From assembly GCF_055900595.2 (NCBI RefSeq), contig NZ_CM148325.1: a stretch of 64,000 nucleotides of DNA. One strand, 5' to 3'. A model generated the notes under the pieces. The model made no database searches, was not told the DNA's origin, and was given only the letters and a program-made list of their open reading frames with translations. Positions within the stretch are counted from its first letter, which is position 1; every line of letters begins with the position of its first letter. Shown here one piece after another: positions 3,651 through 54,319 of the stretch. The position numbers and the translations under genes are program-made.

Positions 3651-4643
3651 ATGAGTCAGAATACGCTGAAAGTTCATGATTTAAATGAAGATGCGGAATT
3701 TGATGAGAACGGAGTTGAGGTTTTTGACGAAAAGGCCTTAGTAGAAGAGGAACCCAGTGATAACGATTTGGCCGAAGAGGAACTGTTATCGCAAGGGGCC
3801 ACACAGCGTGTGTTGGACGCGACTCAGCTTTACCTTGGTGAGATTGGTTATTCACCACTGTTAACGGCCGAAGAAGAAGTTTATTTTGCGCGTCGCGCAC
3901 TGCGAGGAGATGTTGCCTCCCGCCGCCGGATGATCGAGAGTAACTTGCGTCTGGTGGTAAAAATTGCCCGCCGTTATGGCAATCGTGGTCTGGCTTTGCT
4001 GGATCTTATCGAAGAGGGCAACCTGGGGCTGATCCGCGCGGTAGAGAAGTTTGACCCGGAACGTGGTTTCCGCTTCTCAACATACGCAACCTGGTGGATT
4101 CGCCAGACGATCGAGCGGGCGATTATGAACCAAACCCGTACTATTCGTTTGCCGATTCACATCGTAAAGGAGCTGAACGTTTACCTGCGAACCGCACGTG
4201 AGTTGTCGCATAAACTGGACCACGAACCAAGTGCGGAAGAGATCGCAGAGCAACTGGATAAGCCAGTTGATGACGTCAGCCGTATGCTTCGTCTTAACGA
4301 GCGCATTACCTCGGTGGACACCCCGCTGGGTGGAGATTCCGAAAAAGCGTTGCTGGACATCCTGGCCGATGAAAAAGAAAACGGCCCGGAAGATACCACG
4401 CAAGATGACGATATGAAACAAAGCATCGTCAAATGGCTGTTCGAACTGAACGCCAAACAGCGTGAAGTGCTGGCACGTCGATTCGGTTTGCTGGGGTACG
4501 AAGCGGCAACACTGGAAGATGTAGGTCGTGAAATTGGCCTCACCCGTGAACGTGTTCGCCAGATTCAGGTTGAAGGCCTGCGCCGTTTGCGCGAAATCCT
4601 GCAAACGCAGGGGCTGAATATCGAAGCGCTGTTCCGCGAATAA
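3651..4643 (+). CDS. rpoS: RNA polymerase sigma factor RpoS (sigma-38), full length
   Basis: ORF 3615..4643; start at internal Met ([11 protein letters not shown]...) gives 330 aa; no premature stop; codon 33 is GAG. Confidence 0.95.
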
Positions 4644-4659
4644 GTAAGCATCTGTCAGA

Positions 4660-4694
4660 AAGGCCAGTCTCTTATGAGGCTGGCCTTTTTCTTT
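4660..4694 (+). terminator. rho-independent terminator downstream of rpoS
   Basis: GC stem GGCCAG...CTGGCC followed by T-run (ggccagtctcttatgaggctggccttttt). Confidence 0.7.
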
Positions 4695-4763
4695 TGTATG
4701 GGGAGTTGGTGTGTTTTGTCGCCTGGATAAGACACGTCAGCGTCCCATCCGGCAATCAGCATC

Positions 4764-5204
4764 CTATTTGCTCATCATCTTGCGCACCAGCTGCATAAAC
4801 AGCTCCTGCTCTTCTCCACTCAAACGCCCCAAAAATTCCTCATCCACACTGTCACCAATCGGTATCGCCGCAGCAAGTACCTTTTCTCCTTCGGCAGTCA
4901 GCCAGACAAAGCGTCGCCGCTTATCAGCAGAGTCATGTTCTCGTCTGACTAAGCCACGATTTTCCATTCGTGCCAGCATTTCTGCCAGCGTTGCTTTGGT
5001 GCTGACTGCTGCTTCCATCAGCGCAACCTGTTCGATGCCAGGCTTATCAGCAATGGCGCGCATCACCGCGTACTGCGGTTTGGTCAGGTCAGGTAGCTCG
5101 TGCTGCCAGCGAGATGTGTGCTGCTGAAAAAGCTGTCGTAACTGATGGAACGCTTTATTTCGTAACGCCATGTAAACTCCGGGCAAACTATCTGCCGCTA
5201 TCAT
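4764..5204 (-). CDS. MarR/SlyA-family transcriptional regulator
   Basis: 146 aa ORF with winged-helix MarR-like core; divergent from adjacent decarboxylase operon. Confidence 0.8.
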   Translation of the reverse strand: MIAADSLPGVYMALRNKAFHQLRQLFQQHTSRWQHELPDLTKPQYAVMRAIADKPGIEQVALMEAAVSTKATLAEMLARMENRGLVRREHDSADKRRRFVWLTAEGEKVLAAAIPIGDSVDEEFLGRLSGEEQELFMQLVRKMMSK

Positions 5205-5286
5205 AGCGGTTTTTCAGTGACGCAGGGGATGTTGTTACTTTTCAGTGCTTGCCGCGATGAGAACAGAGGCGTATTTTAATAATAAC

Positions 5287-5300
5287 GTTCGTATACGAAC
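5287..5300. promoter_or_regulatory. perfect 14-bp palindrome GTTCGTATACGAAC, candidate MarR-type operator
   Basis: Seen in sequence in the 113-bp divergent intergenic region, 18 bp upstream of the UbiX-like start codon. Confidence 0.45.
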
Positions 5301-5317
5301 AATTAAGAGAATTAACA

Positions 5318-5911
5318 ATGAGACTGATCGTCGGGATGACAGGGGCCACCGGAGCGCCTCTTGGTGTGGCATTACTGCAAGCGCTGCGGGAGATGCCGAA
5401 TGTCGAGACTCATCTGGTGATGTCGAAGTGGGCGAAAACCACCATTGAACTGGAAACGCTTTACAACGCCCGCGATGTTGCTGCCCTCGCAGACTTCTGC
5501 CATAACCCGGCGGATCAGGCCGCAACCATCTCCTCAGGTTCCTTTCGTACCGACGGCATGATCGTTATTCCGTGCAGTATGAAAACGCTCGCCGGTATCC
5601 GCGCTGGTTACGCCGATGGCCTGGTAGGGCGCGCGGCGGACGTCGTGCTCAAAGAAGGCCGCAAACTGGTGCTGGTGCCGCGTGAAATGCCGCTTAGCAC
5701 CATCCATCTCGAAAATATGCTCGCACTTTCGCGCATGGGCGTGGCGATGGTGCCGCCGATGCCTGCCTTTTATAACCATCCCGAAACGGTAGATGACATT
5801 GTCCACCACGTGGTAGCCCGCGTGCTGGATCAATTTGGCCTCGAACATCCTCACGCCAGGCGCTGGCAAGGATTGCCGCAGGCCCGGAATTTTTCCCAGG
5901 AGAATGAATAA
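5318..5911 (+). CDS. UbiX-family flavin prenyltransferase paralogue (decarboxylase B subunit)
   Basis: 197 aa; MRLIVGMTGATGA flavoprotein motif; first gene of a three-gene operon. Confidence 0.85.
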   Translation: MRLIVGMTGATGAPLGVALLQALREMPNVETHLVMSKWAKTTIELETLYNARDVAALADFCHNPADQAATISSGSFRTDGMIVIPCSMKTLAGIRAGYADGLVGRAADVVLKEGRKLVLVPREMPLSTIHLENMLALSRMGVAMVPPMPAFYNHPETVDDIVHHVVARVLDQFGLEHPHARRWQGLPQARNFSQENE

Positions 5912-7338
5912 TGGCATTTGATGATTTACGCAGCTTTTTACAGGCGCTTGATGACTACGGTCAGTTACTGAAAATCAGTGAAGAAGTGAACGCCGAGCCG
6001 GATCTGGCAGCCGCTGCCAACGCCACTGGGCGTATCGGCGACGGTGCACCGGCGCTGTGGTTTGACAATATTCGCGGCTTTACCGATGCCCGCGTGGCGA
6101 TGAACACTATCGGTTCCTGGCAGAACCACGCGATTTCCCTCGGCCTGCCGCCAAACACCCCGGTTAAAAAACAGATTGATGAGTTTATCCGCCGCTGGGA
6201 TAACTTCCCGATTGCCCCGGAACGCCGCGCTAATCCAGCGTGGGCGCAGAACACCGTCGATGGCGAAGAGATTAACCTGTTCGATATCCTGCCGCTGTTT
6301 CGTTTAAACGATGGCGATGGCGGTTTCTATCTCGACAAAGCCTGCGTGGTTTCCCGCGATCCGCTCGACCCGGATAACTTCGGCAAGCAGAATGTCGGCA
6401 TCTATCGCATGGAAGTGAAGGGTAAGCGTAAGCTCGGCCTGCAACCGGTGCCGATGCACGATATCGCCCTGCATCTGCATAAAGCGGAAGAACGTGGTGA
6501 AGATTTGCCAATTGCCATCACGCTGGGTAACGATCCGATCATCACCCTGATGGGCGCCACCCCGCTGAAATACGATCAATCAGAGTACGAAATGGCTGGC
6601 GCACTACGCGAAAGCCCGTACCCGATCGCCACCGCCCCGCTGACCGGTTTTGATGTGCCGTGGGGCTCGGAGCTGATCCTCGAAGGGGTAATCGAAAGCC
6701 GTAAACGCGAGATTGAAGGGCCGTTCGGTGAATTTACCGGCCACTACTCCGGCGGGCGCAACATGACCGTAGTGCGCATCGATAAAGTCTCTTACCGCAC
6801 CAAACCGATTTTTGAATCGCTCTATCTCGGTATGCCGTGGACCGAAATCGACTATCTGATGGGGCCAGCCACCTGTGTGCCGCTGTATCAGCAACTGAAA
6901 GCCGAGTTCCCGGAAGTGCAGGCGGTGAACGCCATGTACACCCACGGCCTGCTGGCGATTATCTCCACCAAAAAACGCTACGGCGGCTTTGCCCGCGCGG
7001 TGGGCCTGCGTGCGATGACCACGCCGCACGGTCTGGGCTACGTGAAGATGGTGATTATGGTCGATGAAGACGTTGATCCGTTCAACCTGCCGCAGGTGAT
7101 GTGGGCGCTTTCGTCGAAAGTGAACCCGGCAGGGGATCTGGTGCAGTTGCCGAATATGTCAGTACTGGAACTCGACCCTGGCTCAAGCCCGGCGGGGATC
7201 ACCGATAAGCTGATTATCGACGCCACTACGCCTGTCGCCCCGGACAACCGTGGTCACTACAGCCAGCCGGTGGTGGACTTACCGGAAACCAAAGCCTGGG
7301 CTGAAAAACTGACCGCTATGCTGGCCGCACGTAAATAA
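5911..7338 (+). CDS. UbiD-family aromatic acid decarboxylase (C subunit)
   Basis: 475 aa UbiD-like protein; start overlaps upstream stop (ATGA coupling). Confidence 0.85.
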   Translation: MAFDDLRSFLQALDDYGQLLKISEEVNAEPDLAAAANATGRIGDGAPALWFDNIRGFTDARVAMNTIGSWQNHAISLGLPPNTPVKKQIDEFIRRWDNFPIAPERRANPAWAQNTVDGEEINLFDILPLFRLNDGDGGFYLDKACVVSRDPLDPDNFGKQNVGIYRMEVKGKRKLGLQPVPMHDIALHLHKAEERGEDLPIAITLGNDPIITLMGATPLKYDQSEYEMAGALRESPYPIATAPLTGFDVPWGSELILEGVIESRKREIEGPFGEFTGHYSGGRNMTVVRIDKVSYRTKPIFESLYLGMPWTEIDYLMGPATCVPLYQQLKAEFPEVQAVNAMYTHGLLAIISTKKRYGGFARAVGLRAMTTPHGLGYVKMVIMVDEDVDPFNLPQVMWALSSKVNPAGDLVQLPNMSVLELDPGSSPAGITDKLIIDATTPVAPDNRGHYSQPVVDLPETKAWAEKLTAMLAARK

Positions 7339-7348
7339 GGAGAACAAG

Positions 7349-7585
7349 ATGATTTGTCCACGTTGTGCCGATGAACAGATTGAAGTGATGGCGAAATCGC
7401 CGGTGAAAGATGTCTGGACGGTCTACCAGTGCCAGCATTGCCTTTATACCTGGCGCGATACTGAACCGCTACGCCGCACCAGCCGCGAACATTACCCGCA
7501 AGCGTTCCGTATGACTCAAAAAGATATTGATGACGCACCGATGGTGCCGAGCATTCCGCCGCTGCTGGCGGCAGATAAGCGCTAA
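7349..7585 (+). CDS. small decarboxylase subunit with CxxC...CxxC zinc-ribbon (D subunit)
   Basis: 78 aa ORF, CPRC...CQHC, 10 nt after the UbiD-like gene. Confidence 0.7.
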   Translation: MICPRCADEQIEVMAKSPVKDVWTVYQCQHCLYTWRDTEPLRRTSREHYPQAFRMTQKDIDDAPMVPSIPPLLAADKR

Positions 7586-7586
7586 T

Positions 7587-7632
7587 AAAAAAGGGCCGGG
7601 TAGAGGCTTTGCTTTACCCGGCCACGTTATTT
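7587..7632. terminator. bidirectional terminator between decarboxylase operon and pphB
   Basis: A-run, stem GGCCGGGTA...TACCCGGCC, then T-rich tract; flanked by convergent genes. Confidence 0.65.
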
Positions 7633-8283
7633 GATTTTATAAAATGACAGCCGCCCGCTTTTCGGCGATCCGGTATCAATATAAATCTGGTTTGCGAACG
7701 TCTGGATGTTATCAAACATCATATGACCGAAGATAAAGCAGTCGGCGCCGTTTATTTCCTGTAACTCGCCTTTGAGCGATTTCAGTACGCGATCAACAGG
7801 CCAGAGCAATTCTCTCTCCGCTATTTCTTTGCCAAAGAGATATTCATTCCCCGGATAATCTGCATGCGCGATGACATATTTTATTATGTCGTTAGTGATT
7901 TCAACAATATGCGGAAGATTATGAAAACGTAGCAACAGGTCTATTGCTTCTTTTTGTTCCGTATCACTTAACTCAAAGAACCAGTCGCCACCGCTGGCAA
8001 GCCACATATTGCCATCGCCGGTCGCGAACGCATCCAATGCCATCGCTTCATGGTTGCCTTTAACCGATGTAAACCAGGGCTGGTTTAGCAGGCGCAGCAC
8101 GTTAAGACTCTCCGGCCCACGATCAATATTATCGCCGACAGAAATAAGTAAGTCGGTTTCAGGGCAAAAAGATAATTGGTGCAGGCGGGATTGCAATAAT
8201 TGATAATCTCCATGAATGTCACCTACCACCCAGATATGGCGATAATGAGTGGTTTCAATTTTACGATAACGAATATCTGGCAT
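7627..8283 (-). CDS. pphB: serine/threonine protein phosphatase 2 (metallophosphatase)
   Basis: ORF 7627..8421 trimmed to internal Met (MPDIRYRKIETTHYRHIWVVGDIHGDY...) giving 218 aa; GDxHG/GDxxDRG motifs; AT-rich. Confidence 0.88.
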   Translation of the reverse strand: MPDIRYRKIETTHYRHIWVVGDIHGDYQLLQSRLHQLSFCPETDLLISVGDNIDRGPESLNVLRLLNQPWFTSVKGNHEAMALDAFATGDGNMWLASGGDWFFELSDTEQKEAIDLLLRFHNLPHIVEITNDIIKYVIAHADYPGNEYLFGKEIAERELLWPVDRVLKSLKGELQEINGADCFIFGHMMFDNIQTFANQIYIDTGSPKSGRLSFYKIK

Positions 8284-8305: not shown

Positions 8306-9169
8306 TTATTCCGGCTTCTGAAACAGAATGGTGTTAATCTCGACATCAGTGATTGCGCCAGCTGCTTCTGCTTTATGTAACCAGTATAGCGCTTTGTCTT
8401 TATCCACACCGTTCTCATCAATGCCCCAGGCGTAAATGCGGCCTAAGGATATTTGGGCATGAGGTAAATCTTGTGCGGCAGCTTTTTCAAACCAGTATTT
8501 AGCCTGTTTAATATCAGCGGGTACACCATCGCCCGTTAAAAAGAGCGTACCATAATTATACTGACCAATTTTGTCGCCTTTTTCTGCGGCAAACTTAAGA
8601 TATGTCGCAGCCTGGAGATAATTCTTTTCCTCGGCTGCGAGGAGCCCTAAATTAGCATGTGCAATGGGGTTTCCCTTTTGCGCCGCTTTAACGAGCCAGG
8701 ATTTTGCTTTATCGATATCATGGAACTTCTCTGGACCAAACTGATAGATATTGGCACAGTTTATCTGTGCCTGAAGATTTCCCTGTCTGGCTGATTTCTC
8801 ATACCAGTGAATGGCATTCTGGTAATCCGGCGGTGTGTCTTCATCTCCCTGATGATATAAAAGCCCGACATAAAATTGCGCAATGTCATCTCCCTGACTG
8901 GCTGCCAGATTAAACCAGTAAAATGCTTTATCGCGGTTTTTAACCCCCGTTACCCCTTCCTGGTAAACAATTCCCAATCCTTTTTGCGCAGATTTATCGC
9001 CGCCTTGTGCCTTTGCGATGATATTTTTCAGGTTTTCCTGTTTGTTTTTAGAATAACGTTGTTCAGCCTGGATAAGATCATCAAGCGAGGGTTCTTTGGC
9101 ACAATAACCTGTAAGAGGAAAATGCAAAATTAGTAGAGTAAATAAAATTAACTTTTTCATACATTCCAT
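8306..9169 (-). CDS. secreted Sel1-like repeat (TPR-like) protein
   Basis: 287 aa, N-terminal signal peptide, about six Sel1-type repeats; AT-rich; 22 nt upstream of pphB on same strand. Confidence 0.8.
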   Translation of the reverse strand: MECMKKLILFTLLILHFPLTGYCAKEPSLDDLIQAEQRYSKNKQENLKNIIAKAQGGDKSAQKGLGIVYQEGVTGVKNRDKAFYWFNLAASQGDDIAQFYVGLLYHQGDEDTPPDYQNAIHWYEKSARQGNLQAQINCANIYQFGPEKFHDIDKAKSWLVKAAQKGNPIAHANLGLLAAEEKNYLQAATYLKFAAEKGDKIGQYNYGTLFLTGDGVPADIKQAKYWFEKAAAQDLPHAQISLGRIYAWGIDENGVDKDKALYWLHKAEAAGAITDVEINTILFQKPE

Positions 9170-9268: not shown

Positions 9269-11830
9269 TTACAGCAAACTCTTCAAGCGGTAAATCCACT
9301 CCAGCGCCTGACGCGGAGTCAGTGAATCCGGGTCGAGATTTTCCAGTGCTTCGACCGCTGGCGAGGTTTCTTCCGGTACTGACAGCAAAGACATTTGCGT
9401 ACCATCCACTTGCGTAGCGGCGGCGTTCGGCGAAATGCTTTCCAGTTCACGCAGTTTTTGCCGTGCGCGCTTAATCACCTCTTTTGGCACGCCCGCCAGA
9501 GCAGCAACCGCCAGGCCGTAGCTTTTGCTCGCCGCGCCATCCTGCACACTGTGCATAAAGGCAATGGTATCGCCGTGCTCCAGCGCATCAAGATGCACGT
9601 TGGCGACGCCTTCCATTTTCTCCGGCAGTTGAGTCAGTTCAAAGTAGTGGGTAGCAAACAACGTCAACGCTTTAATCTTATTCGCCAGATTTTCAGCGCA
9701 CGCCCATGCCAGCGACAGACCATCGTAAGTGGACGTTCCGCGCCCAATCTCATCCATCAACACCAGGCTGTACTCCGTGGCGTTATGCAGAATATTGGCG
9801 GTTTCGGTCATCTCCACCATAAAGGTTGAACGCCCGGATGCCAGATCGTCAGCCGCGCCCACACGGGTAAAGATACGGTCAATCGGGCCAATCTCGACTT
9901 TTTGCGCCGGTACGTAGCTGCCGATATAGGCCATCAGCGCAATCAGTGCGGTCTGGCGCATATAGGTACTTTTACCGCCCATGTTCGGACCGGTGATGAT
10001 CAACATGCGACGCTGCGGCGACAGGTTCAGCGGGTTAGCGATAAACGGCTCATTCAGTACCTGTTCAACTACCGGATGGCGACCTTCGGTAATGCGAATA
10101 CCCGGTTTATCAATGAAGGTCGGGCAGGTGTAGTTCAGGGTATAGGCCCGTTCCGCCAGGTTCACCAGTACGTCGAGTTCTGCCAGTGCGCTCGCGCTCT
10201 GTTGCAACGCCTCCAGATGCGGCAACAGCAGGTCGAACAACTCTTCATAAAGCTGTTTTTCCAGTGCCAGCGCTTTACCTTTCGAGGTGAGTACTTTGTC
10301 TTCATACTCTTTTAGCTCTGGAATAATGTAGCGTTCGGCGTTTTTCAGCGTCTGACGACGCATATAGTTGATGGGTGCCAGATGGCTTTGTCCACGGCTG
10401 ATCTGAATGTAATAACCATGCACCGCGTTAAAGCCGACTTTCAGCGTGTCCAGGCCGGTACGTTCACGCTCGCGAACTTCCAGACGCTCCAGATAATCTG
10501 TCGCGCCGTCAGCCAGCGCTCGCCACTCATCCAGCTCTTCGTTATAGCCTGATGCGATAACACCACCGTCGCGTACCAGCACCGGCGGTGTATCGATGAT
10601 TGCCCGCTCCAGCAGATCGCGCAGCTCGGCAAACTCGCCCATTTTCTCACGCAGCGCCTGTACCGGTGCACTATCGACATTTTCTAACTGTGCACGCAGC
10701 TCCGGCAGTTGCTGGAAAGCGTGACGCATACGGGCCAGATCGCGTGGGCGGGCAGTCCGTAAAGCCAGACGTGCCAGAATACGTTCCAGGTCGCCGACCT
10801 GACGCAGTACCGGCTGCAGCTCAGCGGTGAAATCCTGCAATGCGCCAATAGTTTGCTGGCGCTCAAGCAACACGCGGGTATCGCGCACTGGCATATGCAG
10901 CCAGCGTTTCAGCATTCGACTCCCCATCGGCGTTACAGTGCAGTCGAGCACGGAAGCCAGCGTGTTTTCCGCACCGCCCGCCAGGTTCTGGGTAATTTCC
11001 AGGTTACGACGCGTCGCGGCATCCATAATGATGCTGTCCTGCTCACGTTCCATAGTGATAGAACGAATATGCGGCAGAGTCGTACGTTGAGTATCTTTCG
11101 CATACTGCAACAGACAACCGGCGGCACAAAGTCCGCGCGGCGCGTTCTCGACGCCAAAACCGACCAGATCGCGAGTGCCAAATTGTAGATTCAACTGCTG
11201 GCGCGCGGTGTCGATTTCAAACTCCCACAGCGGGCGACGGCGCAAGCCGCGACGACCTTCAATCAGCGACATTTCAGCAAAATCTTCTGCATACAGCAGT
11301 TCCGCCGGATTAGTGCGTTGCAGTTCTGCCGCCATCGTTTCGCGGTCAGCCGGTTCACTCAGGCGAAAACGACCGGAACTGATATCCAGCGTCGCGTAGC
11401 CGAAACCTTTACTGTCCTGCCAGATAGCCGCCAGCAGGTTGTCCTGACGCTCCTGCAACAGCGCTTCATCGCTGATGGTGCCCGGCGTAACGATACGCAC
11501 AACTTTGCGCTCAACCGGACCTTTGCTGGTCGCCGGATCGCCAATTTGTTCGCAGATGGCAACGGACTCGCCCTGATTCACCAGTTTGGCGAGGTAGTTT
11601 TCCACCGCATGGTATGGAATCCCCGCCATCGGGATCGGCTCTCCCGCGGAAGCGCCGCGTTTGGTCAGTGAAATATCCAGCAGTTGTGACGCACGTTTTG
11701 CGTCGTCATAAAACAGTTCGTAAAAGTCACCCATCCGGTAGAACAGCAGGATCTCGGGATGCTGGGCTTTCAGCTTGAGATACTGTTGCATCATGGGCGT
11801 ATGGGCATCGAAATTTTCTATTGCACTCAT
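9269..11830 (-). CDS. mutS: DNA mismatch repair protein MutS
   Basis: 853 aa; Walker [10 protein letters not shown]; full length. Confidence 0.96.
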
Positions 11831-39545: not shown

Positions 39546-40311
39546 TGCTCTCTCCGGTTATGATCACATCGATCCCTTTCTCTTCCAGCGCCTGACGAAA
39601 CGCCGGATCGATACCTGCGTCGGTAATCAGCTTATCGACGCTTTCAAGACTACAAACCACGTTGGGGCTTTTACGGCCAAACTTCGATGAGTCAGCCATC
39701 AAAATCACTTCGCGCGCGGCATTACACATCGCTTTACTGACGGTATAGACCTCGTTGAAGGTGGTTACGCCTGCATTGAGATCGATGCCATCGGTGCCCA
39801 TAAACAATTTATCGAAGCTGAAATGTTCGAAGGCGTTCTCTGCCAGCTGCCCGTGAAATGAGGCCGATTTTTTACGAAATGTGCCGCCTGGCATCAGGAT
39901 AGTTTGTTCGTTATCCAGTTCGGATAGCGCATTGACGATGTGCAGGCTGTTGGTCATCACCGTGATGTTATTAAAGCGCGAGAGCAGGGGCACCATCTGT
40001 AATACAGTACTTCCAGCATCAAGAATGATTGAATCGCCATCATGAATAAAACTGACGGCAGCTTCTGCAATCAGCTCTTTCTTGTGGGTGTTGATGAGTG
40101 TTTTATGATCGATAGGCGGATCGGATTCCTCTTTATTCAACACCACTCCGCCATAAGTACGAATGACGGTTCCTGCATGTTCCAGAATGACCAGATCTTT
40201 GCGAATGGTTGTGCCTGTGGTGTCAAAGTATTGCGCCAATTCTTCAACCGAGCATTTCCCCTGCTTTTGCAGGTACTCCAGAATGGCGGCCTGACGCTGA
40301 CGAGGTTTCAT
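39538..40311 (-). CDS. srlR: DeoR-family glucitol operon repressor
   Basis: 257 aa DeoR HTH + sugar-binding domain. Confidence 0.92.
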
Positions 40312-40377
40312 GGGCGTGATTACCTGATTTAGGTTTCAAAATGATAACTTCGCAAGCTAGTAACATTCACAACGAAA

Positions 40378-40737
40378 TTATCCACGTTTCAGTTTAAGCG
40401 CCAATGATAGAGCATTCTGTGATAGTGGATCATGGGGAAAGATCACATCGGGCTGTAAATCAGCAGAATGCATGCCCGTAATTGCGGGAATTTTTTGCGG
40501 TCGGGCGAAGACAGTCAGTCCTTTCATAAACAAGGTGTCGACGATGCGCTGCTGATCGTCCAGGGCGATGGCGACCACGACCCGCGGTTTAAAGCGCCCG
40601 CTGGAACGGCCCACGCCAACCCGCCCTTGCTGGCAAAGTGCGTCGAAGGCGCGGTTAAAACGAGAAATTTGCCAGCCGCCTAAGGCCAGTTGCGCACACC
40701 AGGCGATAACGGCGACGGTGATGAGTGTGGATACCAT
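40378..40737 (-). CDS. srlM: glucitol operon activator GutM
   Basis: 119 aa, conserved position between srlD and srlR. Confidence 0.88.
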   Translation of the reverse strand: MVSTLITVAVIAWCAQLALGGWQISRFNRAFDALCQQGRVGVGRSSGRFKPRVVVAIALDDQQRIVDTLFMKGLTVFARPQKIPAITGMHSADLQPDVIFPHDPLSQNALSLALKLKRG

Positions 40738-40842
40738 AACTTTTCCTTAATGTAGCGGCGGAAGTCCTGTAGGCCTGATCAACGTAGCGCATCAGGCATT
40801 CTATTAGTCTCGCGGAGATCCTTAACGGATCTCCGCTGTTGA

Positions 40843-41997
<1,155 letters not shown>

Positions 41998-42007
41998 GTT
42001 TCAGCCT

Positions 42008-43545
<1,538 letters not shown>

Positions 43546-50711: not shown

Positions 50712-50804
50712 GGTGAGGTGGCCGAGAGGCTGAAGGCGCTCCCCTGCTAAGGGAGTATGCGGTCAAAAGCTGCATCCGGGGTTCGAATCCCCGCCTCACC
50801 GCCA
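50712..50804 (+). tRNA. serV: tRNA-Ser (anticodon GCU)
   Basis: 93 nt with long variable arm, anticodon loop CU-GCU-AA, 3' CCA encoded. Confidence 0.93.
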
Positions 50805-50807
50805 TTT

Positions 50808-50884
50808 GCATCCGTAGCTCAGCTGGATAGAGTACTCGGCTACGAACCGAGCGGTCGGAGGTTCGAATCCTCCCGGATGCACCA
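50808..50884 (+). tRNA. argV: tRNA-Arg (anticodon ACG), copy 1
   Basis: 77 nt GCATCCGTAGCTCAGCTGGATAGAGTACTCGGCTACGAACCGAG...CACCA; 3 nt after serV. Confidence 0.93.
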
Positions 50885-50947
50885 TATTCTACGAAATCTT
50901 CAGCAATGAAGGTGTCGAAGAGGTGGCGGTACTAACCGCAAGCACCA

Positions 50948-51019
50948 GGGAGGATAACGTTGCTTTAGCAACGGCCCGAAGGGCGAGCCGTAAGGCGAGT
51001 AATCCTCCCGGATGCACCA
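50948..51019 (+). other. tRNA-like structured spacer element ending in a copy of the tRNA-Arg 3' end
   Basis: 72 nt: stem GGGAGGA...TCCTCCC, internal hairpins, terminal aatcctcccggatgcacca identical to tRNA-Arg 3' 19 nt. Confidence 0.45.
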
Positions 51020-51083
51020 TCTCTTACTTGATACGGCTTTAGTAGCGGTATCAAAAAATCTGCAGTAAAGTAAGTTTCCCGAT

Positions 51084-51160
51084 GCATCCGTAGCTCAGCT
51101 GGATAGAGTACTCGGCTACGAACCGAGCGGTCGGAGGTTCGAATCCTCCCGGATGCACCA
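51084..51160 (+). tRNA. argY: tRNA-Arg (anticodon ACG), copy 2
   Basis: 77 nt, identical to copy 1. Confidence 0.92.
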
Positions 51161-51262
51161 TATTCTCCGTAATCATCAGTGATGATGGTTAAGATGGATT
51201 TTCTTATTTGATATGGCTTTAGTAGCGGTATCAATATCAGCAGTAAAATAAGTTTTCCCGAT

Positions 51263-51339
51263 GCATCCGTAGCTCAGCTGGATAGAGTACTCGGCTACGA
51301 ACCGAGCGGTCGGAGGTTCGAATCCTCCCGGATGCACCA
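51263..51339 (+). tRNA. argZ: tRNA-Arg (anticodon ACG), copy 3
   Basis: 77 nt, identical to copy 1. Confidence 0.92.
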
Positions 51340-54175: not shown

Positions 54176-54250
54176 AAGAAAAAGGCCACTCGTGAGTGGC
54201 CAAAATTTCATCTCTGAATTCAGGGATGATGATAACAAATGCGCGTCTTT
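54176..54250 (-). ncRNA. micA: small regulatory RNA MicA (SraD)
   Basis: Minus strand reads GAAAGACGCGCATTTGTTATCATCATCCCTGAATTCAGAGATGAAATTTTGGCCACTCACGAGTGGCCTTTTT; between gshA and luxS, divergent from luxS. Confidence 0.85.
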
Positions 54251-54319
54251 CATATACTCAGACTCGCCTGGGAAGAAAGAGTTCAGAAAATTTTTAAAAA
54301 AATTACCGGAGGTGGCTAA

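Follow-up and report, generated by a model that had tools for sequence, protein, structure and literature searches.

The rpoS-mutS hotspot of an Escherichia coli chromosome carries an O157-type hosA-ecdBCD locus, a probable inducible phenolic-acid decarboxylase module

[quoted passage not shown] A first-pass annotation had proposed a divergent MarR-family regulator followed by a UbiX-like protein, a UbiD-like protein, and a 78-residue zinc-ribbon protein, in the B/C/D architecture of non-oxidative decarboxylases. Our data bear this out, as the open reading frames lie where they had been placed and the products of the three enzyme genes exceed the corresponding NCBIfam cutoffs. Taking all lines of evidence together, we consider it very likely that the locus is best explained as hosA-ecdBCD, an inducible, non-oxidative phenolic-acid decarboxylase system under the control of HosA.

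The variable segment and its edges

The variable segment is flanked upstream by rpoS (3651-4643) and downstream by pphB (7627-8283, minus strand), which is convergent with ecdD. When the K-12 locus was compared with the window using blastn, homology extended to position 4689 and returned at 7628, delimiting a 2.9-kb segment (4690-7627) with no counterpart in K-12 and confirming that the region lies outside the K-12 configuration. A terminator scan located the rpoS intrinsic terminator hairpin at the left edge of this segment (4657-4690, plus strand), where it may also stop hosA transcripts arriving from the opposite side. The right edge of the module is marked by a GC-rich hairpin terminator with a 12-bp stem (7594-7623, plus strand) between ecdD and pphB. 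In the closest genome, an IS200 element is inserted exactly at the rpoS terminator.

The 6-kb ygbN-ygbI block of K-12 had no blastn match anywhere in the 64-kb window. With ygbN (o454) absent, hosA-ecdBCD beside rpoS, and ecdD beside pphB, the layout is that of mutS-rpoS "pattern I," the O157:H7/EHEC 1 type, and a "2.9-kb segment" adjoining rpoS is what Ewers et al. (2014) describe for pattern I. The window departs from this pattern in that pphB and mutS are separated by an additional Sel1/TPR gene. The hosA-ecdBCD module is intact, and no transporter gene lies within it. Compared with the alleles of O157:H7, strain 135, and O111, all four genes show dN/dS ratios of 0.02 to 0.14, and they are therefore maintained coding genes and not chance open reading frames.

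The decarboxylase genes and their likely substrates

The enzyme genes ecdB (also pad1, vdcB, or kpdB; 5318-5911), ecdC (yclC, vdcC, or kpdC; 5911-7338), and ecdD (vdcD or kpdD; 7349-7585) follow each other in the order B, C, D on the plus strand. A 1-nt overlap joins ecdB to ecdC, the ATG of the latter overlapping the stop codon of the former (TAATG), and a 10-nt gap separates ecdC from ecdD, which has a GGAG 7 nt upstream. Gene identities were established directly, by scores against NCBI's curated NCBIfam cutoffs. EcdB is a UbiX-family flavin prenyltransferase, the type of enzyme that makes prenylated FMN (prFMN): it scores 311.3 bits with the VdcB model NF041206 (cutoff, 290) and 247.6 bits with the general UbiX model TIGR00421 (cutoff, 108.9), and it is identical at 192 of 197 positions to the crystallized O157:H7 Pad1 (PDB 1SBZ). 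The UbiD-family catalytic subunit EcdC scores 787.6 bits with the VdcC model NF041204 (cutoff, 650) and 417 bits with the general UbiD family model (cutoff, 245), and it matches ShdC/VdcC (PDB 7AE4) with an E value of 1e-159. Aligned with ShdC, EcdC retains the motifs NVGIYR (N161, R166) and EGPFGE (E269, E274) as well as H183 and E225/E227, that is, both the catalytic Glu-Arg-Glu triad and the metal ligands. Of these residues, N161, R166, H183, E269, and E274 would correspond to N168, R173, H191, E277, and E282 of Fdc1. The activator subunit EcdD, a zinc-ribbon protein of 78 amino acids, scores 120.5 bits with the VdcD model NF041205 (cutoff, 30) and matches ShdD (7AE4_a) with an E value of 7.5e-11; the cysteines of its two CXXC knuckles (C3, C6, C28, and C31) occupy the zinc-ligand positions of ShVdcD.

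With respect to substrates, which had been called unknown in the first-pass annotation, the literature has moved on. We presume from a table heading that the compound codes 49a and 57a denote 4-hydroxybenzoate and vanillate, respectively. Both codes are among the accepted substrates listed for O157:H7 EcdCD in a review (PMC6644310), and 4-hydroxybenzoate is the effector of HosA. By analogy with the O157:H7 ortholog, EcdBCD of the window would thus be expected to decarboxylate 4-hydroxybenzoate and vanillate. VdcC activity requires VdcD (PMC8379154), and VdcCD enzymes are oxygen sensitive, the Bacillus and Sedimentibacter holoenzymes having been obtained from E. coli only via in vitro reconstitution (PMC8379154); activity in vivo may therefore be conditional.

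A different main natural substrate, such as vanillate, protocatechuate, gallate, or a similar phenolic acid from the gut or from plants, would reduce 4-hydroxybenzoate to the best-studied inducer. Several para-hydroxy acids are indeed taken by VdcCD-type enzymes (PMC6644310, PMC8379154), and the Klebsiella homolog is listed with a broader range (PMC6644310). We nevertheless regard this reading as unlikely, given that the effector with which HosA was crystallized and its affinity measured is 4-hydroxybenzoate and that the dedicated protocatechuate decarboxylase AroY (PDB 5O3M) matches EcdC with an E value of 5e-27, compared with the far stronger match of ShdC.

HosA, the divergent control region, and the proposed mechanism

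The regulator gene hosA (4764-5171, minus strand) encodes a MarR/SlyA-family repressor of 135 amino acids, identified by its match to crystallized HosA and by the RefSeq annotation. While the open reading frame as listed spans 4764-5204, the true start is at 5171, in agreement with both the RefSeq annotation and the MALRNKAF beginning of the crystallized protein, and a GGAG lies 7 nt 5' of this ATG. The protein is identical to PDB 8AGA at 129 of 134 positions (the differences are at 20, 53, 81, 119, and 134), and every reported 4-hydroxybenzoate contact (F8, H9, R12, F15, H18, K31, and D110) is conserved; the dN/dS ratio of hosA is 0.10 to 0.14. We rejected an assignment to SlyA proper, since the SlyA equivalog model NF002926 yields 27.5 bits against a cutoff of 120, and the gene that earlier publications call "slyA" is in fact hosA. 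HosA has been reported to repress both the decarboxylase operon and its own gene and to be freed from DNA by 4-hydroxybenzoate, with a KD of 4.7 µM for this ligand and release seen by EMSA (bioRxiv 10.1101/2024.04.24.590444, PMC6261655).

Between hosA and ecdB lies a divergent regulatory region of 146 bp (5172-5317), which we aligned for four E. coli alleles, Salmonella, and Klebsiella. It contains the HosA operator, a perfect 14-bp palindrome, GTTCGTATACGAAC (5287-5300), that ends 17 nt before the ecdB ATG, is the sequence found in the HosA-binding probes of the PMC6261655 supplement, and occurs in this exact form only once in the 64 kb. The conservation of the operator across genera can be observed directly: every other E. 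coli allele inspected has it unchanged, as does Salmonella at equal spacing, and Klebsiella differs by a single mismatch, while the flanks have diverged. The HosA site has been located downstream of the ecdB transcription start (bioRxiv 10.1101/2024.04.24.590444). A strict scan of 4600-7700 found no sigma-70 promoter at its threshold, suggesting that the ecdB promoter is weak or unconventional, and the best candidates under relaxed scoring reach only 8 of the 12 consensus matches, for which reasons the promoter can be positioned only by inference. One such candidate, TTGCCG-N17-TATTTT (5249-5277, plus strand), would place the start near 5284, just upstream of the operator, agreeing with the published position of the site.

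A second palindrome, the terminator-like hairpin GCCGCTATCATAGCGGT followed by a T-run (5194-5210), lies 23 nt upstream of the hosA start. All four of the aligned E. coli alleles have the hairpin, and Salmonella and Klebsiella retain its CTATCATA/CTATGATA core. Candidate roles include a hosA -10 box or leader, a second operator, or an insulator against rpoS read-through. It is conceivable, albeit doubtful, that this palindrome provides a further, as yet undescribed control element, acting either in HosA autoregulation or as an insulator against rpoS transcripts, and that the order rpoS-hosA-ecdBCD-pphB-Sel1/TPR-mutS constitutes an undescribed fifth pattern of the hotspot.

The regulon of HosA may be wider than this locus, as a 2005 paper reports in its title that HosA regulates motility in EPEC. 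Taken further, HosA could be chiefly a global regulator of motility and virulence, with the adjacent decarboxylase genes as a minor or vestigial target. We consider this improbable, because the operator sits directly before ecdB and is conserved together with the enzyme genes across three genera and because purifying selection on ecdC is very strong (dN/dS, 0.017).

We return to the HosA-controlled decarboxylase, for which substrates, effector, and repression are transferred by analogy from orthologs that are 93 to 99% identical in protein. In this model, which for repression and autorepression follows the literature, a HosA dimer bound to the operator just past the ecdB transcription start would block transcription when no substrate is present, and HosA would also repress its own gene. 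Upon entering the cell, 4-hydroxybenzoate would bind at the dimer interface (H9, R12, and D110) and take HosA off the DNA, allowing ecdBCD to be transcribed as a single, translationally coupled unit. EcdB would then prenylate reduced FMN to yield prFMN, with which EcdC would convert 4-hydroxybenzoate into phenol and vanillate into guaiacol by decarboxylation, while the EcdD zinc ribbon would bind EcdC and steady its catalytic Glu-Arg-Glu loops. As to the physiological role, we infer the detoxification or use of phenolic acids derived from plants or parabens; repression would also protect the endogenous pool of 4-hydroxybenzoate, from which ubiquinone is made, against depletion.

Two further readings are very improbable. 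Although the enzyme family is described as reversible, a system running mainly backwards as a phenol carboxylase, adding CO2 to phenol in the anaerobic, CO2-rich gut, is at odds with an inducer that is the acid and not the phenol, with a locus that has neither phenylphosphate synthase nor another energy-coupling partner, and with phenylphosphate carboxylase models that score far under their cutoffs. Likewise, EcdB and EcdC belong to the same superfamilies as UbiX and UbiD, and E. coli UbiD (PDB 2IDB) matches EcdC with an E value of 5e-46, but spare copies for ubiquinone biosynthesis are hard to reconcile with a VdcD partner, with control by 4-hydroxybenzoate, and with only 171.3 bits for EcdC in the UbiD equivalog model NF008175 against a cutoff of 788, whereas the VdcC cutoff is exceeded.

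Distribution, history, and comparison with known systems

By direct count in annotated genomes, hosA-ecdBCD is present in 2,380 of 5,426 complete E. coli genomes (approximately 44%), in keeping with the expectation that it would be restricted to a subset of strains; at this prevalence, the module counts as widespread and already annotated, not as a discovery. Descriptions of the locus date back to 1999-2000, its regulator has been crystallized with ligand, RefSeq names its genes, and the HosA operator is employed in commercial-style biosensors. Nothing about the module itself is new. The direct ecdD-pphB junction of the O157-type layout, without ygbI-N, occurs in 804 of the 5,426 genomes. The arithmetic of these two counts suggests that about two thirds of the E. 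coli genomes bearing the module also have ygbI-N; the proposal that it stands in place of ygbI-N is thus correct for the window but does not hold as a general rule.

At the DNA level, the module of the window is 5 to 6% diverged: only 8 of the 5,426 genomes are at least 99% identical, the others being 94 to 95.5% identical, and the flanking mutS shows the same degree of divergence from every genome except 8. The layout rpoS-hosA-ecdBCD-pphB-Sel1/TPR-mutS is found in about 3.6% of E. coli genomes, and the two TPR alleles are only about 68% identical. The strain from which the window derives represents a rare lineage, unusual alongside its Sel1/TPR gene in a locus that is otherwise ordinary.

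Two proposals for the origin of the module were rejected. Foreign import is not supported, as the dS values of the module (0.09 to 0.32) bracket that of mutS (0.26), its GC content (55%) differs little from the 56% of mutS, and mutS is equally diverged. Nor is the module plasmid borne, with 0 of 2,418 E. coli places on plasmids and all of them chromosomal; large PLSDB "plasmid" matches are chromosomes or chromosome fragments, and in Pantoea and Rahnella the module is on megaplasmids. In Salmonella and Klebsiella, too, the module adjoins rpoS or lies between rpoS and mutS, and it therefore appears to be a long-standing occupant of this interval that K-12-like lineages have lost, whereas in the O157-type layout of the window ygbI-N would have been lost instead. 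[quoted passage not shown] The practical value of the locus is that of a strain marker, its layout identifying the strain as O157-type with respect to the rpoS-mutS hotspot.

Among known systems, UbiX and UbiD of ubiquinone biosynthesis have prFMN chemistry and folds in common with EcdB and EcdC but act on another substrate, polyprenylated 4-hydroxybenzoate, and lack a D subunit; EcdC, moreover, fails the UbiD equivalog model. Closer in architecture are the VdcCD systems of Sedimentibacter hydroxybenzoicus and Bacillus subtilis (ShdCD and BsdBCD; PDB 7AE4), which like the window combine a UbiD-type C subunit with a four-cysteine zinc-ribbon activator D, obtain prFMN from a UbiX partner, and act on 4-hydroxybenzoate and vanillate. 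Their proteins are distant relatives of those in the window, the D subunit most of all, and a HosA-type regulator is not described for the Firmicute systems in the literature examined. The Salmonella StdBCD and Klebsiella KpdBCD modules comprise the same four genes, with EcdC 97 to 98% identical in protein but HosA only 75 to 77% identical; in Salmonella, the module has the opposite orientation with respect to rpoS and lies beside ygbI, and the Klebsiella locus has additional LysR, MFS, and DUF4440 genes. The closest counterpart is hosA-ecdBCD of O157:H7 and EPEC (also slyA-pad1-yclC or kpdR-kpdBCD). Although O157:H7 is without the Sel1/TPR gene between pphB and mutS, its proteins are identical to those of the window at 126 of 135 (HosA), 192 of 197 (EcdB), 471 of 475 (EcdC), and 75 of 78 (EcdD) positions. 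In line with the O157-type layout first proposed, its genes, their order and orientation, the operator, the left junction at the rpoS terminator, and the direct contact of ecdD with pphB are the same as in the window.

The regulator and decarboxylase genes

Our data confirmed the architecture proposed in the first-pass annotation, a MarR regulator accompanied by UbiX-like, UbiD-like and small zinc-ribbon (B/C/D) subunits; the observation is real, and the interpretation given to it was correct. The hosA-ecdBCD module is already known, having been named, annotated and characterized both structurally and biochemically, and it occurs in nearly half of E. coli. At the left of the window, the gene order truD-surE-pcm-nlpD-rpoS (rpoS, 3651-4643, plus strand) leads into hosA (4764-5171, minus strand), which is followed on the plus strand by ecdB (5318-5911), ecdC (5911-7338) and ecdD (7349-7585). 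ecdB and ecdC share one base (TAATG), ecdD starts 10 nt past ecdC with its own GGAG, and a 12-bp GC-rich hairpin at 7594-7623 ends the ecdBCD unit.

All three enzymes exceeded the curated NCBIfam cut-offs of their VdcBCD orthologues (EcdB, 311 bits against 290 for VdcB; EcdC, 788 against 650 for VdcC; EcdD, 120 against 30 for VdcD), and the broad UbiX and UbiD family models of NCBIfam were passed as well, in keeping with the families first assigned. The NCBIfam equivalog model for UbiD proper clearly failed. EcdB is identical to Pad1 of O157:H7 (PDB 1SBZ) at 192 of 197 residues, and the best match of EcdC was the ShdC/VdcC chain of 7AE4 (E 1e-159), with UbiD (5e-46), AroY (5e-27) and Fdc1 far weaker. 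EcdC retains NVGIYR (N161/R166), H183 and EGPFGE (E269/E274), the metal-binding and Glu-Arg-Glu motifs, which map onto the Fdc1 numbering. EcdD matched ShdD (E 7.5e-11), and its cysteines 3, 6, 28 and 31 occupy the exact zinc-ligand positions of ShVdcD, a subunit that VdcC activity needs and that is proposed to keep catalytic loops in position (PMC8379154). With dN/dS values of 0.02-0.14, the module genes are under purifying selection.

The regulator shares 129 of 134 residues with crystallized HosA (8AGA), and six other HosA entries were also matched. Each of the residues contacting or surrounding 4-hydroxybenzoate (4-HBA) in HosA, namely, F8, H9, R12, F15, H18, K31 and D110 (bioRxiv 10.1101/2024.04.24.590444), is unchanged. 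The NCBIfam equivalog model for SlyA proper clearly failed.

What the genes are, their motifs, the operator, the layout of the operon and the purifying selection are shown directly here, and the substrates, effector and repression are carried over from the literature on the orthologues. The substrate, initially regarded as unknown, is no longer so, as a review table lists 4-hydroxybenzoate and vanillate for the O157:H7 orthologue (PMC6644310) and 4-HBA has been identified as the effector (PMC6261655). In this scenario, EcdB would make prenylated FMN, with which EcdC and EcdD would form phenol from 4-hydroxybenzoate and guaiacol from vanillate by decarboxylation, the genes being held off by HosA until 4-HBA arrives. 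The physiological role would then be phenolic-acid detoxification or use, and repression may additionally spare the endogenous 4-HBA pool for ubiquinone.

The hosA-ecdB control region

The 146-bp intergenic region contains a perfect 14-bp palindrome, GTTCGTATACGAAC, at 5287-5300, which stops 17 nt short of the ecdB ATG and is the single exact copy in the window. Together with its flanks, it is present in the HosA-binding oligonucleotides of a study in which HosA was reported to recognize a 14-bp site, to come off the DNA in EMSA when 4-HBA was added and to bind 4-HBA with a KD of 4.7 uM (PMC6261655). The palindrome is identical in the O157:H7, strain 135, O111 and strain 10035776-3 alleles, while neighbouring bases vary. 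In Salmonella it is likewise identical and 17 nt from the ATG, the remaining intergenic DNA being unalignable by eye, and Klebsiella has a copy with one mismatch plus a second related site. We take this conservation as a clear phylogenetic footprint.

HosA is described as repressing both the operon and hosA itself, with 4-HBA as inducer, from a site downstream of the transcription start by road-block action. A weak candidate ecdB promoter found in a relaxed scan (TTGCCG-N17-TATTTT, 5249-5277) would fit such an operator position; since a stricter scan found no promoter in the hosA-ecdB intergenic region, this step is one that we infer.

A second palindrome or hairpin, GCCGCTATCATAGCGGT with a T-run, at 5194-5210, precedes the hosA start by 23 nt and scored as terminator-like on the plus strand. 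The element is kept in the compared E. coli alleles, and its CTATCATA/CTATGATA core is retained in Salmonella and Klebsiella. It could serve as the hosA -10 box (TATGAT, minus strand) or as a second operator, form a hairpin in the leader, or insulate against transcription reading through from rpoS.

Lineage divergence and origin of the module

Identity of at least 99% at the module (4764-7585), mutS (9269-11830) and the srl operon (40000-43000) was found in only 8 of 5426 complete E. coli genomes. The remaining genomes are roughly equidistant (module, 94-95.5%; mutS, 93-95%; srl, 97-97.8%). The strain is one of a rare lineage, perhaps a deep-branching one such as cryptic clade I. Against O157:H7, the dS values of the module genes (0.09-0.32) bracket that of mutS (0.26), and the divergence therefore belongs to the region and the lineage, not to the module. 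pphB (7627-8283, minus strand; low GC, 44%) is much more diverged than its neighbours, with 86-88% DNA identity and dS of 0.54-0.66 against O157:H7, K-12 and strain 135 (rpoS, 0.10; mutS, 0.26), which is suggestive of recombination at this gene or of an ancient separation of its alleles.

The same MarR-B-C-D module directly adjoins rpoS in Salmonella Senftenberg, inverted and beside ygbI, and lies between rpoS and mutS in Klebsiella pneumoniae, with EcdC protein identities of 97-98% in both. Together with the region-wide divergence, this shared location and identity favour the module being an old resident of the rpoS-mutS interval that was differentially lost. Herbelin et al. (2000) reportedly reached the same conclusion. 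Horizontal acquisition from Shigella, claimed in recent literature, is not favoured by the present results.

Several PLSDB "plasmid" records (including NZ_LN868944.1 and CP125156.1) are mislabelled chromosomes or chromosome fragments, among them a Salmonella record of 728 kb with rpoS, nlpD and ispDF, as well as 4.8-5.4-Mb records from Klebsiella and E. coli, so plasmid matches in PLSDB require checking.

The variable segment and its known layouts

Homology to the K-12 locus stops at 4689, immediately past the rpoS terminator hairpin (4657-4690), and picks up again at 7628, thus defining a variable segment of about 2.94 kb (4690-7627). The 6-kb ygbN-ygbI block of K-12 had no match within the 64-kb window, which upholds the first-pass placement of the strain outside the K-12 configuration, with the layout of O157:H7 and without ygbI-N.

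Of the complete genomes, NZ_CP098223, from a dog in Korea, is the closest, with 100% identity over the region. It carries an IS200/IS605 insertion (6048-6756 of its locus) precisely at the breakpoint where the rpoS terminator ends and K-12 homology breaks off (about 4688-4690 in the window); the element is absent from the window. In one of their strains, Ewers et al. found IS200 in the ygbN-rpoS interval (PMC4209514). A REP-like sequence lies close to this breakpoint, at about 4720-4755. Elsewhere, Rfam identified the MicA sRNA (54180-54251, minus strand) and a four-tRNA cluster (50712-51336, plus strand), as expected for this chromosomal region.

The pphB-mutS interval, only about 100 bp in K-12 and O157:H7, holds in the window a Sel1/TPR gene (8306-9160, minus strand; spacer to 9268; low GC, 43%) encoding a secreted repeat protein, ahead of mutS (9269-11830, minus strand). 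Its exact allele occurs in 11 of 5426 complete E. coli genomes. Another 182 genomes have a TPR gene that is only about 68% identical to it; both of the loci inspected had this gene at the position seen in the window, with ISKpn26 interrupting one copy.

Among the 5426 complete E. coli genomes, at a coverage of at least 80%, the module was present in 2380 (44%), always chromosomally, in line with the suggested restriction to a subset of strains. The K-12 ygbN-ygbI block was present in 4577 (84%) and the direct ecdD-pphB junction in 804 (15%). By arithmetic on these totals rather than per-genome intersection, about 1576 genomes would carry both blocks, like O111, and about 800 the module without ygbI-N, like O157:H7 and the window. 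The variable segment agrees with the "2.9-kb" one that adjoins rpoS in O157:H7 and EPEC and includes hosA, pad1 and yclC (PMC5491219; PMC4209514), and the both-block and module-only layouts reproduce patterns IV and I, respectively, of Ewers et al. (PMC4209514).
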